Shown here: piece after piece, positions 280 through 57,339 of the stretch
Position numbering within the stretch: position 1 is the first letter of the stretch
How the letters are laid out: each line of letters starts with the position of its first letter
From: Eledone cirrhosa
Taxonomy: Eukaryota
Direction: 5' to 3'
Assembly: GCA_964016885.1 (NCBI GenBank)
Contig: OZ024748.1
Span: forward strand, 43,028,001-43,092,000
DNA length: 64,000 bases
Notes under the pieces: generated by a model
Database searches by the model: none
What the model was told of the DNA's origin: nothing
What the model saw: only the letters and a program-made list of their open reading frames with translations
Program-made: the position numbers and the translations under genes

Positions 280-315
280 CAACACACCATAGACATATTG
301 GTAGCAGTGGTGTTT
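280..315 (+). CDS. CLASP: Candidate short CLASP exon (36 nt)
   Basis: tttcatgcccctcatccag|...|gtaagt; open in phase 1: xTHHRHIGSSGV; no homology support. Confidence 0.5.
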
Positions 316-416
316 GTAAGTATTTTTAGGTACTTTGTCATATCTGGCAAAACCTCTTGCTTTCTGCTGCTTCATTTGTCTTCTTCATAACCACACATTC
401 TCATCTCTCATCTCTT

Positions 417-449
<33 letters not shown>

Positions 450-477
450 ATATATATATATAGTTTTAATATAGATG

Positions 478-528
478 AGATTCTACAGGATTAGAACTGT
501 TTCATTCTTTTGAAATCATCAGGAATCT
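478..528 (-). ncRNA. Antisense copy of the same hammerhead motif (left arm of palindrome)
   Basis: Reverse complement reads agattc-CTGATGA-tttcaaaagaat-GAAA-cagttctaatcctg-TA-gaatct. Confidence 0.7.
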
Positions 529-556
529 GGGTATAAAGATTTATTTTTTGATACCC

Positions 557-607
557 AGATTCCTGATGATTTCTAAAGAATGAAACAGTTCTAGTCCTGT
601 AGAATCT
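557..607 (+). ncRNA. Type I minimal hammerhead ribozyme motif (Penelope/retrozyme-like)
   Basis: agattc-CTGATGA-t(ttc taaa gaa)t-GAAA-cag ttctagtc ctg-TA-gaatct; stems I, II and III pair; predicted cleavage after GUA (601). Confidence 0.75.
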
Positions 608-815
608 CATCTATATTAAAACTTTTATACTCTATGTATTGAGTACCTTACTTACTGTGGTTACCTCCAATTCAACCCGGAATAACATATATATATATAT
701 ATATATATAGCATATTCTAATATCATTAGTTTTCGGAAAATTAATACTTTAATATTCCTCCTAGATTTTTTATTATTCGGTTCTCGTTTTTATCACTCTA
801 TATCCAATTTATATT

Positions 816-852
<37 letters not shown>

Positions 853-1183
853 TTATATATATATGTATATGTACATACAAATATATCATCTCACTCATAT
901 ATTATTCATTTCTTTATTTTACCTTAATTTCCTCCAATAACTTTAAAGTAGCCAGTAATTAGGTGACAATATTTCAACAGGGCCCTGACCTCCCCCTGCC
1001 TCTTATCCACAAACACAGGGCCGGATTTAATGGAGTGCAATTGCCCTGTACCCCACCAGCGATGGCCATAGCAATTTATTTGTGCCCTCAGTTGAGTTTT
1101 TAGTTTTAGGATGGTTAGAATTTTTTTATTTAATACCTGTATGTATAACTTTTCAATTCTAATGACTGAAACAAGTTGAATAA

Positions 1184-1539
1184 TAATAATTGTTTCTACT
1201 TTTTGGCACAAGGCCAGCAATTATCCCAGTGTATTACTGGTACTTTATTTTATCGACCCCGTAAGGATGAAAGGCAAAGTTAACCTCGGCGGGATTTGAG
1301 CTCAGATCATAAAGAGCCGTAACTCTATGCTGCAAAGCATGGCGTCCAACCCTCTACCGATACTGCCAAAATAATAATTGTTTCTTCTTTCGGCACAAGG
1401 CCAGCAATTACCCAGTGCATTACTGGTACTTTATTTTATCGACCCCGTAAGGATGAAAGGCAAAGTTAACCTCGACGAGATTTGAACTCAGAATGGCAAG
1501 GGGCGTAACTCTATACTTCAAAGCATGGTGTCCGACTCT
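1184..1539 (-). mobile_element. Two tandem copies of a second tRNA-derived SINE family
   Basis: Antisense of tctgagttcaaatcccgccgaggtcaactttgcctttcatccttacggggtcgataaaataaagtaccagt. Confidence 0.75.
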
Positions 1540-1544
1540 AATAA

Positions 1545-1995
1545 TATACAAACACACACCAGAAAAAGTGTCAGAGAATGACAAAGCAACCATTCTCTGG
1601 GATATGCCAATATATACAGACAGAGATCAAAGCCAACTGACCAGATATAGTCAAAGACCATATCTTCCAAGGAAATCGAGAAACTATCCAAATATAAAGA
1701 TCTTGAGATAGAAATAACTCGAATGTGGAAAATGAAACCAAAAACAATACCTATAATAAAAGGTGTTCTAGGAATAATAAAAAAAAGCCAGACGAATACA
1801 TAACCAAAACCTCAGGAATTACAAATATATACAGTATACAAAAGATAGCAATAGGTACTGCACACATATTACAAAAAATACTATCAATACAATAGAAACA
1901 ACATCAGCACAAACTACACTGCACAGAGCTGTGCTCGGTAAAGCAGTAATGATGTGCAATAAAAATAATAATGGAAATAACAATAATAATAATAA
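1545..1995 (+). mobile_element. 3' end of an RLE-type non-LTR retrotransposon (R4/Dong-like), decayed
   Basis: HTPEKVSENDKATILWDMPIYTDR... followed by frameshifted PDIV and later IPIIKGVLG; (TAA)-rich tail. Confidence 0.65.
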
Positions 1996-2250
1996 AATAA
2001 AAAGAGAATTTGTATAATCAAAATACTCTAACGAGTTGCTGGCTACTTAAAACATCATTAACATTTCATTTCCATTAAACTAATTAAACTAATTACATTT
2101 TAAAACTTTTCATAAATTTCATCTTTTCTTATTTTTATTATTTATTTCAAGAATTATATTAGAATTATTGGTCAAAATACTTTACTATTATATATTTATA
2201 TTTTAGCTAACCTCATTATCACCTATATTCCTCTACTGACATTCTATATA

Positions 2251-2288
<38 letters not shown>

Positions 2289-2294
<6 letters not shown>

Positions 2295-2339
2295 CTGATG
2301 ATTTCTAAAGAATGAAACAGTTCTAGTCCTGTAGAATAT
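2289..2339 (+). ncRNA. Solo copy of the same hammerhead motif
   Basis: atattc-CTGATGA-tttctaaagaat-GAAA-cagttctagtcctg-TA-gaatat; the element continues to ~2425 between (TA)n tracts. Confidence 0.7.
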
Positions 2340-2879
2340 CATCTATATTAAAACTTTTATACTCGTCAATGTATTGAGTACCTTACTTACTGTGGTTACC
2401 TCTGACTCAACCCGGAATAACGTACCTATATATATATATATATATATGTATCTATATGTATATATATATAGCTATAATCATACTAATTATTCATTTTGGT
2501 GGTTTATCCTAAAATTTTCAAATTAGATTTCTTTCCTACTCTCTGCTCTCACTCTCTGTCTCTCTATATATACACTCTATATAGTGTATATCTGTGTATA
2601 TATATATTTGGTAGCTGTGTATTTGACAACAATTGTGTTTCTATAGCTTAATTTATGTTGTAATATTTTATTTAAAATCTTTATTTTCTCTCCACCCCCA
2701 TGTTGTTATGTTGTCAAACTATATTCAGTATTCCTGGTTTAGTTATATTGTATAGCCTGTTGTTGTTGTTATTGTTGTTAATATTTTTGCTTTTCTTTTT
2801 GATCTTATTTTAATATACTATGCTGTATTATTATATATACATAAAAATGGGTGGTTTTAATATATGACACTGTATTATA

Positions 2880-2926
<47 letters not shown>

Positions 2927-3140
2927 GTAAAAGGTAAACAGAAATAAAACAAACGTCACAGTACATGGAAGAAATATATTAGTTTATCGCTTGAAGTAGC
3001 AGGAAGAGAGTCTTAACGTTTCAGTTACACTAGTCCTTTAACAGAAGATAGTTAGAAATAGAAGATAAATAGAAAATAAAGAGTGATGAGAGGAAGGAAC
3101 GGGGGAAAAGGGGGGAAAAAAATACCCCACATTTGCATGT

Positions 3141-3185
<45 letters not shown>

Positions 3186-3513
3186 TGATTTGATCAGAGA
3201 CACACACTGTGTTTAAGGTTGAGTGACGCAATTTTGAGTGATTAGCGGCCTTTAGACTCACCTGATCAATGAAACAATTGTTAATACTGTAAATAAAACC
3301 CTTTTTCTACAGCCGACCATATTATTCTTCACTCTTTCACTACTATTACTCCAAGAATAACCTGCATGGGAATTGTCGCAAACTCGCCACCTAACTAAGG
3401 AAACCTCTTGAGTCAAACAACGCCGTATGTTAAAACTATCCATAGTACAGAGTACTCACAACCTCTAACTGGATTACCTAAAACAATAACTTGTAACCCA
3501 CACATATATATAT

Positions 3514-3896
3514 GGAGGCACATGGCTTAGTGGTTAGAGCATTGGCCTTGCAATCGAAAAGTTGTGAGTTCAATTCTCAGACTGGGTGATGTGTTGTTTC
3601 CTTGAGCAAGACACTTTATTTCACATTGCTCCAGTTTACTCAGCTGTAGAAATGAGATGATAGGACTGGGGTCCCTATCATTCCACTGCAAAGTGGTCGT
3701 GGAGGTGCCACGGCAAAAAAAAGCACCCAGCCCACACTGGACGTGGAGGTGCCACAGGGGGAAAAAAAAGCACCCAGCACTCACTGTAAATGAGGTTGGT
3801 GTTAGGAAGGGCATCCAGCTGTAGAAATCAAGCCAGAATCGTTCCCGTCCTACCTTTGCAAGCAGGGAAAAGCGGACGTATGATGATGATGATGAT
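3514..3896 (+). mobile_element. tRNA-derived CORE-type SINE
   Basis: A box TGGCTTAGTGG, B box GAGTTCAATTC, CORE-like CCTTGAGCAAGACACTT..CTCAGCTGTAGAAATG, (GAT)n tail. Confidence 0.85.
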
Positions 3897-4392
3897 ATAT
3901 ATATATATACAAATGGAAGTACAGCATAATCGAAGCTCTGGCTGCAGCTAAGCTAACGAATGCAATCGGAATGTACAGCTAAGTACTCAATAAGGTATTT
4001 TACCTTAGAGTTATAACATTACGTTTAGACAGCTTTGCAAATTGAAGATAGCGACCGGTAAGCCAGCCGCAGTGACCAAAGCAACGAGAAAACTGTCTCA
4101 GGAAAATATGACAAACCTGGGCCATCGCGTCGATATATATATATATATATTCTATGCTAAGGCAGAGTGCATATATTGAAAACAAAGGTTTCGCATTAAG
4201 GTCTTTATTGATTATACGTAGTTATTACAACCGTTTCACAGGATCGTAGTTATTACAACGTGGCTCAGGATCTATGTAAAGGCTATAGACCTGACTCCAA
4301 CCCGATATGGGATCTTCTGAAACTGAGAAAAATTAATCTGTAAACGCAGAAGTAAATATTTCAAAAAATGTTATGACCAAACATGACAACAT

Positions 4393-4423
<31 letters not shown>

Positions 4424-6204
4424 AAGACAATAGTAAAATATTATTGCTATCAGCACCAAAATGGATCAACATCAATATGGTCTCCCTTTATGTCACACTG
4501 AATCAAAACTAATTATTGAAATTTTATTCAATAAAAACTGCTGAGCTGGTAATCTACTGTATTGAATACTTAGTGTTGTAGTATAGGTCACTATATCTTA
4601 TAAGAACAGCCAGGATACCACGTGATATACAAACATCTGGATGTGGCCTGGCCCCTTAGAGTGTAAGCAGTTAAGGGCTGAAACACTTACTTGAGGCAGG
4701 GTTTCTTCTCTGAAGACCTTCTGCTGTCCAGCTCTCTTGAGAGTTTCTTCTCTGAAGACCTTCTGCTGTCCAGTCCTCTTGAGAGTTTCTTACCACCACT
4801 AAGCTGTCAAGGATGATAATATATAAATCAATAATAGCTGATAGATTATAAATCAATAATAGCTGTTAGATTTGTTGTATTTTGCTTCTTTTTTTTTAAG
4901 TTTGTTTTTGTTTAATTTCTTTTTTATTTCTTTATTGTTATTCCACAGTTTATTATCCATAAAATTTTCTTCTGCCATCTAAACTTTGCCAATATTTGAA
5001 ACTTTCTACATATTTCCATTCCATATTCCTGCTTCATGGATATGAAATGTCCAGTTTTAGTTAGCTGGAAAGAGCATAAGAGTTTCTCACACCATCTGAG
5101 AAAACTGATTTATGTCTGTGCAATTGTATTCTTATATTTTGTTACTGGTTCCAGCTGGTGGACTATGTAACTTTAAAAATATCTTCTATAGATACAAGAT
5201 GTCCTATTTAAAGACTATGCTGTACTTGTCTTTTATGTAGTGAAAAATTGATTCCATTCTTCTCTTGATTAAGTAATTAGAACAAACGAGAGATTATTTA
5301 GCTTCACAGATATATAACCAGCAAGAATTTTTTTGAAATATCTGATTTTGAAATCACTACTATTTTGTGCTCTTGTGATGCTGAGTTTTCCAGGAAGTTT
5401 GAAACAAAATAATTGTCAAAAAATAATGTGCATGTCTGCATTTGTGGAATGTATGTATTTCCCAATATAATCAATGATTATTGGAGAAGATAGAAAGAAA
5501 AGGATTGGCACCAGGAAGAATGTCTAGTCATAGAATCCTGCCTGAAAAATATCCTGTCCATCCCATGTTGCTGATATGATGATTTAAACCTTTGGAACCT
5601 GCTCCACATTCAAGTGCACATAAATATATACATAAATACATGTCCATATGTTCTGCCCAACACTTGCTAGCAGGGAATATGGATGTTAAAACAATGATAT
5701 GTGAATATGCATGGTTTTAACTACTTGCAATTATTTTGTTTCAAATATGTTGCTAGTATATTGTTTTATAACAAAACAAATAAAACTGATATCTTATATA
5801 TTTAAATAAGACCAACAATTACCCAAACCTGAATGTAATGATATCCTGTCCCTACAAGAGGACTATCACTGGGAATCTGTCCACAGTGTCAAGATATGAT
5901 ATATATTACATATATGAAATACTATAACCAAACACTGACACCTGCTGAATCATGACACCTGCTGAATCAAACTGTACACACCCTCCAAATTTTGTAAATA
6001 AACACGAACCATCCCCCTTCCCAAACTTGACATATGTAACCAGACCTCCAATAGGGAAAACAGACACTATCAAAACTACCTGAAACCAGCCATCATCCCA
6101 AACTCGACATATCTAACTGGACCCTATGTATTTTCTAATGTTCTTCTTCTTTTCGTATCTTCGAAGCATGTGGTTATATGACAGTTTCCCATTTCTTTAC
6201 ACAG

Positions 6205-6505
6205 CCCTTTGCGTTATTATTAAATTCTGCGAGATCTTTTAAGCTGCACTGGTTGGGTAGTAGAGGGCAAACAAGGCGGTGTTGTATTGTATGGTCCTCC
6301 TCTCCGCATTCGCAGATGGTTGGGCCGGTCTTGTAGCCCCATCTGGCCATACCAGATTTTGATCGCCCGAATTCCTGTTCTCAGGCGGTTGAGTGTCTTC
6401 CACTGGACCCATGGTGCTTCTGAGCCAGGAGGGAGAGCTTCAGAAGGAGGGATTCTCATGTCAATAGGAGGGGAGTTATTCTCTAATGTTTATAGTTGGT
6501 TATAA
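6205..6505 (-). mobile_element. 3' end of a non-LTR retrotransposon (Vingi/Ingi-like)
   Basis: LPPGSEAPWVQWKTLNRLRTG followed by a frameshifted CECG..H..C knuckle. Confidence 0.6.
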
Positions 6506-6681
6506 TCTGTCTGTTGGCAAAGTTTAAATGAAATGGTCTGAAGAAGTTTTATATTGCAAATAGTTATTGTTTTTTTCTGTTTTTATTTTTGTAAAATTTT
6601 TATTTATTTTTTACTCCTGCATGACTTGCTTTTTATATATATTTTTTTACAATAATTTGCCATTTGTGCTCCTTCTGCCAG

Positions 6682-6711
6682 AAGGTGGTGGCGAAGGTGA
6701 TGATACGGAAG
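6682..6711 (+). CDS. CLASP: Candidate CLASP microexon (30 nt; 27 nt via NAGNAG)
   Basis: tttgccatttgtgctccttctgccag|aaggtggtggcgaaggtgatgatacggaag|gtaagg; phase 1-1 xGGGEGDDTE; purine-rich island in an AT-rich intron. Confidence 0.6.
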
Positions 6712-6933
6712 GTAAGGTTTTTTGGTGATATTCCTTGCCACTTGTGTCTCCCAGAACATTTGTTTTTGTGTGTAATTGTATTCCTGGCTTTCTGTTGCAT
6801 TCAATTTAGTTGTGACCCCTTTTTTACCTGATTTATGCCATTTTTTAATATTTTTTTTTTTTACCTGTTGTTGTATAGCTTGGATGTTGTTTTTGTTTTG
6901 TTTTTGCTTCTTTTTATTTTCATCCTGTTACAG

Positions 6934-7074
6934 ATGGTTCTAGAGCTAACAGCACGGGTGGGATAGTACGCTCTAGTAGTGATATAGATCTGACTGGCGC
7001 CGCCACACGGGTTTATCCTTCCTTTTCAAGGTCCACAGCACTTAGACTCACTCCAGACAATACACGTTCACTGC
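6934..7074 (+). CDS. CLASP: CLASP coding exon (S/R-rich linker, RSSSDID motif)
   Basis: ttacag|...|gtaaga; 141 nt, phase 1-1; xGSRANSTGGIVRSSSDIDLTGAATRVYPSFSRSTALRLTPDNTRSL resembles vertebrate CLASP RSRSDIDVNAAA. Confidence 0.9.
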
Positions 7075-56429: not shown

Positions 56430-57339
56430 ATTACCGGTTATATATATATATATATATATAAAATTTTATATAGAAATGGCTTGTACAGGACTAGAACTGT
56501 TTCATTTATATACACTGTGATGTGATATTAGGATTCATAGCTGACTCTACTAGTTTATTAGTTATTATTGTCATTGTGTTATTGTCATTTCTGTTTTAGT
56601 CGTTTCGTCAATTTGAATATTTCTATGTTTATTATTTGGCAACATTGATGAGGAAGTAGAATAACTCAACCCAGCCCGACTTGACCCAACCTGACTCGAC
56701 TCCAATCTGACCCTCATACAAAATGTTCTGTATTTAATTATCTGCCATCTCAGTCATGTCATTTCATTAAGATTTACTATCATCATCATTGTTTAACGTT
56801 TATTTTGCCACACTAGCATGGGTCAGACAGGTTGTCCTGTTGTGAGACAAGTCAGATCAGTGACCCATCTCTTGCTCATACAGAACTGTTTCTGGCTTGG
56901 TTTCTACGCCTGGATGCCCTTCCGAACACTAGCCATGTTTACAGAGTGGACTAGGTGCTTTTTGACATGGCACCAAATATGTTTATTATTCCACATGAGG
57001 TAATGAGTTTGTAGAGTCATTAGAGTGTTGGATTAAATACCTTGTGGTATTTAATCCAGTTGCCTCCACTCTGAGTTCAAATTGCACTGAGGCTAACTTT
57101 GGCTATCATCATTTTAGGGGTCGATATAGAAATTAGTAGTCCTGGGACAGAGTGTAAATCACTAGGGGTCAAGAGTTGGATAGGATGCCTTGTAGTATCT
57201 GATGTGGTTCTGTAAGTTATACAGTCTGAGTTCCTTCTGCCAACAGACAATATCAACAATTGAAAGTCCAATGGAAACATTGTTTTCTTGGCTAATCAGA
57301 TGATTGGTTCCTTTCTTTCATGTGTGTGTCTCTCTCTCT

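Follow-up and report, generated by a model that had tools for sequence, protein, structure and literature searches.

The palindromic element at positions 462–688 of the window (the whole 64,000-nucleotide stretch of Eledone cirrhosa DNA analysed here) is, on the evidence of its sequence, a truncated insertion of a young, autonomous Penelope-like retrotransposon (PLE) of the Hydra clade, a clade assignment made from protein motifs. The family (hereafter the octopus family) is new within a known clade, and the type of insertion is already known. The short, truncated insertion occupies a (TA)n tract within an intron of CLASP, and we consider it probable that it arose from uncleaved RNA copied at two internal starts, the resulting cDNAs being joined.

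The insertion in the CLASP intron

Comparison with homologues placed CLASP exons on the plus strand at −231 to −178 and 6936–7073, with an alternative exon at 280–315 and the gene spanning past the end of the window; the CLASP exon was 98% identical to octopod proteins. The element is therefore intronic and in sense orientation relative to CLASP, the location that the first-pass annotation had given it, and sits 147 nt inside the intron (about 316–6933), after the 36-nt exon. The features are as follows.

280–315, plus strand: 36-nt alternative exon of the host CLASP gene, from homologues
437–461: left (TA)n target microsatellite, from sequence reading
462–537, minus strand: inverted, 5′-truncated, tail-less copy of the element end (pLTR end), from arm comparison and hammerhead scan
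528–478, minus strand: type I hammerhead motif with CTAA in loop 3, from the scan
539–623, plus strand: pLTR end in direct orientation, its first base 18 nt upstream of the putative transcription start
557, plus strand: putative +1 of the family transcript, where its cap would sit, at the first hammerhead stem I base, from TATA at −30, pile-up and extra G
557–607, plus strand: type I hammerhead motif, predicted to cleave after 601 and to be locked by 462–537 in CLASP pre-mRNA
624–688, plus strand: 65-nt tail, the start of the 5′ UTR, which in full-length copies runs on to the ORF (ATG at +182)
689–709: right (TA)n target microsatellite, from sequence reading
2289–2424, plus strand: second, independent family copy in the same CLASP intron, with tail and no inverted arm of its own, beginning at the equivalent of 559 (2292)

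The two arms of the hairpin (462–537 and 548–623) are 76 nt long, inverted, 96% complementary and separated by a 10-nt spacer. Watson–Crick pairs form at 73 of the 76 positions, thereby matching the 73-bp inverted arms of the first-pass annotation, and the other three positions are 491/594 (U–G), 511/574 and 535/550. Folding of 450–700 gave z = −24.4, and none of 200 shuffled sequences matched or beat the score. The palindrome at 462–623 is bounded by (TA)n on the left and right, as had also been reported, and no target-site duplication could be read within the (TA)n at this insertion. The direct arm begins at 539 and the inverted arm likewise extends past 557, and the TATA (−30), CACCC and CCAAT boxes of longer copies are missing from both.

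Elsewhere in the window, 56441–56506 (minus strand) is a degenerate remnant of the family adjoining a (TA) tract. The segment 1457–1900 resembles a frame at another locus and is presumably what is left of the 3′ end of a LINE of the type encoding a restriction-like endonuclease, and 1182–1353 and 1370–1539 are two tandem copies, 88% alike, of a presumably SINE-like repeat.

The parent family and its clade

A search with 545–690 gave 1,457 genome candidates, and the 40 that were scored were 95–100% identical. The terminal 21-mer had 12,934 exact genomic matches and both hammerhead flanks had 2,831; compact palindromes with 90–120 nt between the anchors numbered at least 1,418 genome-wide, and the reversed-pattern controls for these counts gave no match. 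For the ORF, 122 scored matches (91–100% identity) were obtained, 20 of which share a 758-codon open frame, and 18 of these 20 are stop-free within the match. The hammerhead and the tail stood immediately upstream of the ORF at 14 of the 20 ORF loci, which supplies the genomic link between arm and GIY-YIG/RT ORF proposed earlier and bears out the suggested Penelope-like origin, the family being linked to intact RT/GIY-YIG ORFs. In longer copies, a microsatellite-rich region and then the RT/GIY-YIG ORF lie upstream of the element end. Complete pLTR-ORF-pLTR units were 4,797, 4,963 and 5,688 bp long (all three that were measured), with an intact 713-aa RT/GIY-YIG ORF whose ATG lies 182 nt from the first stem I base. 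Since full units place the tail before the ORF, 624–688 is the Penelope tail, that is, the start of the next unit, and by the same layout 462–537 is the usual inverted, tail-less end. The 3′ region of the three units (2.5–3.4 kb) is mostly (TA)/(TG) microsatellite, the type of target used by the family, and self-insertion into this region could give rise to tandem pLTRs. Fragments of other GIY-YIG-bearing Penelope-like families were seen close to family copies at six loci.

Among 34 aligned proteins, YRDDG was invariant. The R and W of RW[KR] were present in all 34 (K in 29, R in 5; the octopus family has RWR), DKT in 32, each Cys of the CxCX5C linker in 33, and CxxC and CxH in 33; no conserved Cys pair (CCHH) was found within GIY-YIG. 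The Pfam match to GIY-YIG was weak (E 0.025), reaching 1e-5 in the relative P0094, and RVT_1 was matched at 9e-6 in P0141. Naiad and Nematis had been first guesses and were dropped on these protein motifs: Naiad should have an N-terminal endonuclease, which here is C-terminal, and Neptune and Nematis should have CCHH plus CX2-5CxxC, of which CCHH is absent here.

The same features are those of the Hydra clade as set out in the available part of Craig et al. (2021; PMC8557442), which includes Hydra-1_Obim of Octopus bimaculoides. The clade and the octopus family alike have a single ORF with C-terminal GIY-YIG, RW[KR], DKT, the CxCX5C linker, CxxC and CxH and no CCHH, as well as a sense type I hammerhead (often with U–U), (TA)n insertion and inverted, 5′-truncated copies. 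The octopus family shows partial-tandem pLTRs, an inverted 5′-truncated copy, a tail at one end, insertion into (TA)n and a canonical sense hammerhead; of these features, the hammerheads, the inverted ends, the tails and the targeting of (TA)n have been published as traits of the Hydra clade. It departs from the clade in the tail, which is 65 nt and not 30–40 nt, and in unit length, which is 4.8–5.7 kb because of the 2.5–3.4 kb microsatellite-rich 3′ region, whereas Hydra-clade units are generally shorter than 3 kb, a tendency rather than a criterion in the available part of that paper. Hydra-1_Obim is a separate family, since its protein as printed in the supplement text of PMC8557442 differs, and two 12-mers of the octopus element were not found in that supplement.

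3′ ends of the copies and the probable joining of two cDNAs

Ends were mapped in the first 100 consecutive 21-mer matches on contig C1, with none dropped and with two loci that are duplicates of each other. Sixty-four of these copies ended with the tail, 33 without it, and 3 read through to the ORF, giving two fixed 3′ ends that correspond to 623 and 688. One arm with the tail and one without it made up 11 of the 13 inverted pairs in this sample. From these ends and the structure of the family, we infer priming and joining as follows. Reverse transcription would begin 66 or about 132 nt downstream of 557, the element protein would copy uncleaved RNA from both internal starts onto both ends of the cut, and the two cDNA 3′ ends would then be joined by microhomology into a head-to-head palindrome.

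Copying of uncleaved RNA from two sites agrees with in vitro findings for Poseidon, a PLE of Anolis carolinensis (Frangieh et al. 2024, available part of PMC11167929): both strands were extended, two internal RT starts likewise bounded the tail, the main template was uncleaved RNA, and the targets were AT-rich. Poseidon belongs to a different clade, and its ORF starts inside the hammerhead, whereas the octopus ATG lies at +182.

A palindrome might also form without second priming, if a single cDNA stopped, snapped back through stem I or the GAATC/GATTC near-palindrome and was extended. Microhomology junctions in stem I do occur (ATAGATG/AGATTC and ATCATCAG/GAATCTC, the slash marking the junction), and we regard such a fold-back as possible but doubtful, because it leaves unexplained the filler bases between the arms at many junctions and the end of the tail-less arm at the fixed base 623, where 33 of the 100 copies also terminate at their 3′ side.

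5′ ends of the copies and the putative transcription start

In window coordinates, the 5′ ends of the same 100 copies fell at 556–561 in 30 cases, that is, within 6 nt of the first stem I base; the others fell at 562–569 (14), 570–597 (9), 546–555 (3), 501–545 (4) and further upstream (36), and few (4) fell at the cleavage site (598–602). The window copy, which starts at 539, is of a minority type, in that 7 of the 100 copies begin at 501–555. A corresponding step was seen genome-wide, where 7,644 copies reached 559 as against 3,048 reaching 545, as counted with probes of 8 and 11 fixed letters and uncorrected for mutation. In longer copies, a TATA box begins 30 nt upstream of 557, and CACCC and CCAAT boxes, all assigned by consensus motif, precede it.

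A base other than C preceded 557 in 1,670 matches. By hand count, this base was G in 78 of 100 matches listed, and 8 of the other 22 listed junctions were point mutants of longer copies. At the control position 563, an extra G was found in 4 of 100 matches listed, this control being incompletely matched to 557, since Gs there often fit the partner arm: many of the 78 Gs could also be read as partner-arm letters and, by hand reading, roughly 30 could not. No constant sequence was found upstream of the extra G among the listed junctions. At the cleavage site there were 143 non-A junctions, a count that misses A-preceded junctions such as those with (TA)n, and about 44 of 100 listed were point mutants. 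In full-length L1 insertions, copying of the cap is marked by an additional G (available part of PMC11702581).

We infer that the family RNA would be capped at 557 from a TATA/CCAAT promoter within the upstream pLTR, and that cDNA would run off the cap to give most short copies; alternatively, where a longer RNA is copied from its 3′ pLTR, the cDNA would halt upstream of 557 and give the window copy. Most short copies are likely to be run-off cDNAs of the 5′ end of capped, uncleaved RNA, often placed head to head, because a pile-up at stem I, TATA at −30 and an extra G are found together with few starts at the cleavage site. Because both of its arms pass 557, the window copy is likely to derive from RNA with promoter-side sequence, such as a full-length or read-through RNA would carry in its 3′ pLTR. 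On the whole we lean towards the wider proposal that the capped RNA starts at the first base of the hammerhead, that run-off cDNAs covering the first 66 or about 132 nt of this RNA, copied while uncleaved and often joined into palindromes, make up most insertions, and that the ribozyme limits the element.

The pile-up could instead reflect a splice acceptor (CAG/A at 558/559) or a stall of the RT at the hammerhead. A pyrimidine tract and CAG do precede stem I, and the 75-bp intron of Drosophila virilis Penelope ends at helix I (available part of PMC4209133), whereas in the octopus family it is the putative start that coincides with stem I. Both explanations appear unlikely in view of TATA at −30; a splice acceptor should moreover have left a constant exon sequence upstream of the extra G, and, against a stall, the edge of the pile-up falls at the far end of the structure. 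In the available parts of PMC2377424 and PMC4209133, D. virilis Penelope resembles the octopus family in its partial tandems, inverted terminal copies, pLTR hammerhead and short repeat at the start of the ORF, and differs in having a TATA-less internal promoter (PMC2377424), as against the putative upstream TATA/CCAAT promoter. Beyond the octopus family this promoter layout may not be general, because a strict TATA was found 36–46 nt upstream of the core in 7 of 26 relatives.

The start-site and cap-G pattern, which rests on 100-copy samples and hand counts, is what the present analysis adds, and we did not find it in print: the literature searched (mostly without subscription papers, Repbase and bioRxiv supplements) held no prior account of a 5′-end pile-up or a cap G in PLEs, nor did the portion of PMC11167929 examined.

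Relation to non-autonomous ribozyme elements

The first-pass annotation had regarded the hairpin as a distinct non-autonomous element, and a retrozyme- or MITE-like unit in which the palindrome itself replicates would account for the large excess of short copies over ORFs and for an array of twelve tandem hammerhead-bearing units of about 1.08 kb. The centres of the palindromes vary from copy to copy, so the palindrome is not inherited, the loop-2 variants of short copies are those of ORF-bearing copies, and most short copies have no upstream promoter boxes. We consider this reading very improbable, its central claim of a replicating palindrome being largely refuted by the varying centres and shared loop-2 variants; the window copy is instead an insertion, 5′-truncated and inverted, from an autonomous family whose ORFs are intact, and its hammerheads on both strands are a by-product of the inverted copy and not a two-strand design.

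Non-LTR retrozymes, as described in the available part of bioRxiv 10.64898/2026.07.22.740005, are also non-coding, carry type I hammerheads and derive from PLE pLTRs; they are defined by two or more successive head-to-tail units, each with a complete hammerhead, whereas the window copy has paired inverted ends and a tail. Head-to-tail units of this kind were found at C1:83.68–83.69 Mb, where twelve of them (C1:83,679,757–83,691,720; 1,027–1,113 bp), all of which carry a pLTR, a hammerhead and a tail, form a retrozyme-like array adjoining an ORF of the parent family at C1:83,695,613.

Two further observations concern sequencing data. In contigs of four runs (at most two samples, from one study), summed depth rose about 15-fold at the hammerhead start and fell about 500-fold after the tail, values that do not represent copy number and carry no weight in the conclusions. 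Comparison of one full-unit locus (its positions 2250–3300) with three sequencing runs gave joints going back 77–78 nt (2642 to 2566), a sign that the sample in question may contain the hammerhead unit as a tandem mini-repeat.

The hammerhead motif

When all 64 kb were scanned on both strands with a strict type I descriptor, three matches were obtained, with cores at 563 (plus), 522 (minus) and 2295 (plus), the last not listed in the first-pass annotation. The motif claimed for both strands of the hairpin is therefore there by descriptor; the Rfam models gave no hammerhead family at E ≤ 10 and only miRNA-hairpin matches below gathering scores, which arise because the element is a hairpin. The plus-strand motif comprises stem I (557–562/602–607), CUGAUGA (563–569), U570·U581, stem II (571–573/578–580), GAAA (582–585), stem III (586–588/597–599) with loop UUCUAGUC, and GUA (599–601), with predicted cleavage after 601. 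CUGANGA, GAAA, UH and helices I–III are thus all present, U570·U581 replaces the canonical G10.1–C11.1 pair, and loop 3 has CTAG in the plus copy as against CTAA in the minus copy.

Within the family, variation among 134 copies was 1.3% in the core and about 1% in the stems, which gives no sign of extra constraint on the core, and the sole common variant was in loop 2 (position 577, A in 88 and T in 46). Because the family is young and its core varies like its stems, within-family conservation, the test suggested earlier, is uninformative, and support for the hammerhead comes from distant families. In 77 metagenome loci bearing a related ORF, the motif was found on the ORF strand in 31 (35 matches), as against one match in 20 shuffles. 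The 32 distinct motifs of these relatives had four or five pair types at each of four inner stem I positions, part of this covariation being by construction, since the descriptor requires pairing. C15.2–G16.2 was invariant among the 32, GUA was the cleavage triplet in 23, helix III was palindromic in 31, and the helix III segment was 4–8 nt long as against 14 nt in the octopus family. The U–U at the base of stem II, earlier suspected of reducing activity, occurred in 14 of the 32 and in many published Hydra hammerheads (available part of PMC8557442), and is a clade trait rather than a defect. These comparisons across distant families are strong evidence that the hammerhead motif is real, with self-cleavage itself putative. 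In the available parts of the respective sources, the in vitro cleavage of metazoan PLE hammerheads is weak (PMC4209133), and that of the Anolis PLE occurs only with protein (PMC11167929).

Folding predictions disfavour the monomer hammerhead, at −4.2 kcal/mol as against −7.6 for the minimum-energy fold (z = −0.27). The dimer was predicted at −21.2 kcal/mol, with stem I and an extended helix III intermolecular and stem II mispaired; as had been proposed for loop 3, the palindromic helix III would suit dimer folding.

Predicted consequences for CLASP

In CLASP pre-mRNA, the hairpin was predicted at −118.4 kcal/mol with a stem I pair probability of 1.5e-51; the 76-bp hairpin is thus predicted to keep the sense hammerhead of the window copy unfolded, in line with the lock by the upstream antisense arm that had been postulated, and the copy is likely to be an inert passenger in CLASP because of this block. 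ADAR acts mainly on young repeats (available part of PMC9989829), which makes editing of the hairpin plausible. In the second copy (2289–2424), the (TA) flank and a C-to-A change together give stem I its full 6 bp (ATATTC/GAATAT), and the core is intact; with a full stem I and no inverted arm, it would be a better candidate than 462–688 for cutting CLASP pre-mRNA. Co-option of the intronic hairpin or hammerhead for CLASP regulation, for example in splicing of the 36-nt exon or pre-mRNA cleavage, could draw on the 147 nt between the element and the alternative exon (280–315), on the second, unlocked sense motif (2289–2339) and on the targeting of young repeats by ADAR in animals (available part of PMC9989829), but is most improbable for a copy that is young (95–98% identical to its best-scoring sisters), that shows no sign of selection and that belongs to a family of about 13,000 copies in 3 Gb, some of which are expected in introns.

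Significance of the family

The window copy alone is ordinary; the family bears on the inverted ends and tails of PLEs and on the purpose of their hammerheads, and its near-identical intact ORFs offer material for biochemistry. Thousands of junctions match the sole available in vitro study, in a living genome and in another clade. If the proposed mechanism is true, these thousands of fossil reaction products would show where transcription starts and where the two priming sites lie, and would document two-ended priming in vivo, and the ribozyme would limit the element by removing the cap rather than make its template. The short, near-perfect palindromes in this octopus genome, at least 1,418 in number, may also, wherever transcription covers them, supply double-stranded RNA for editing.
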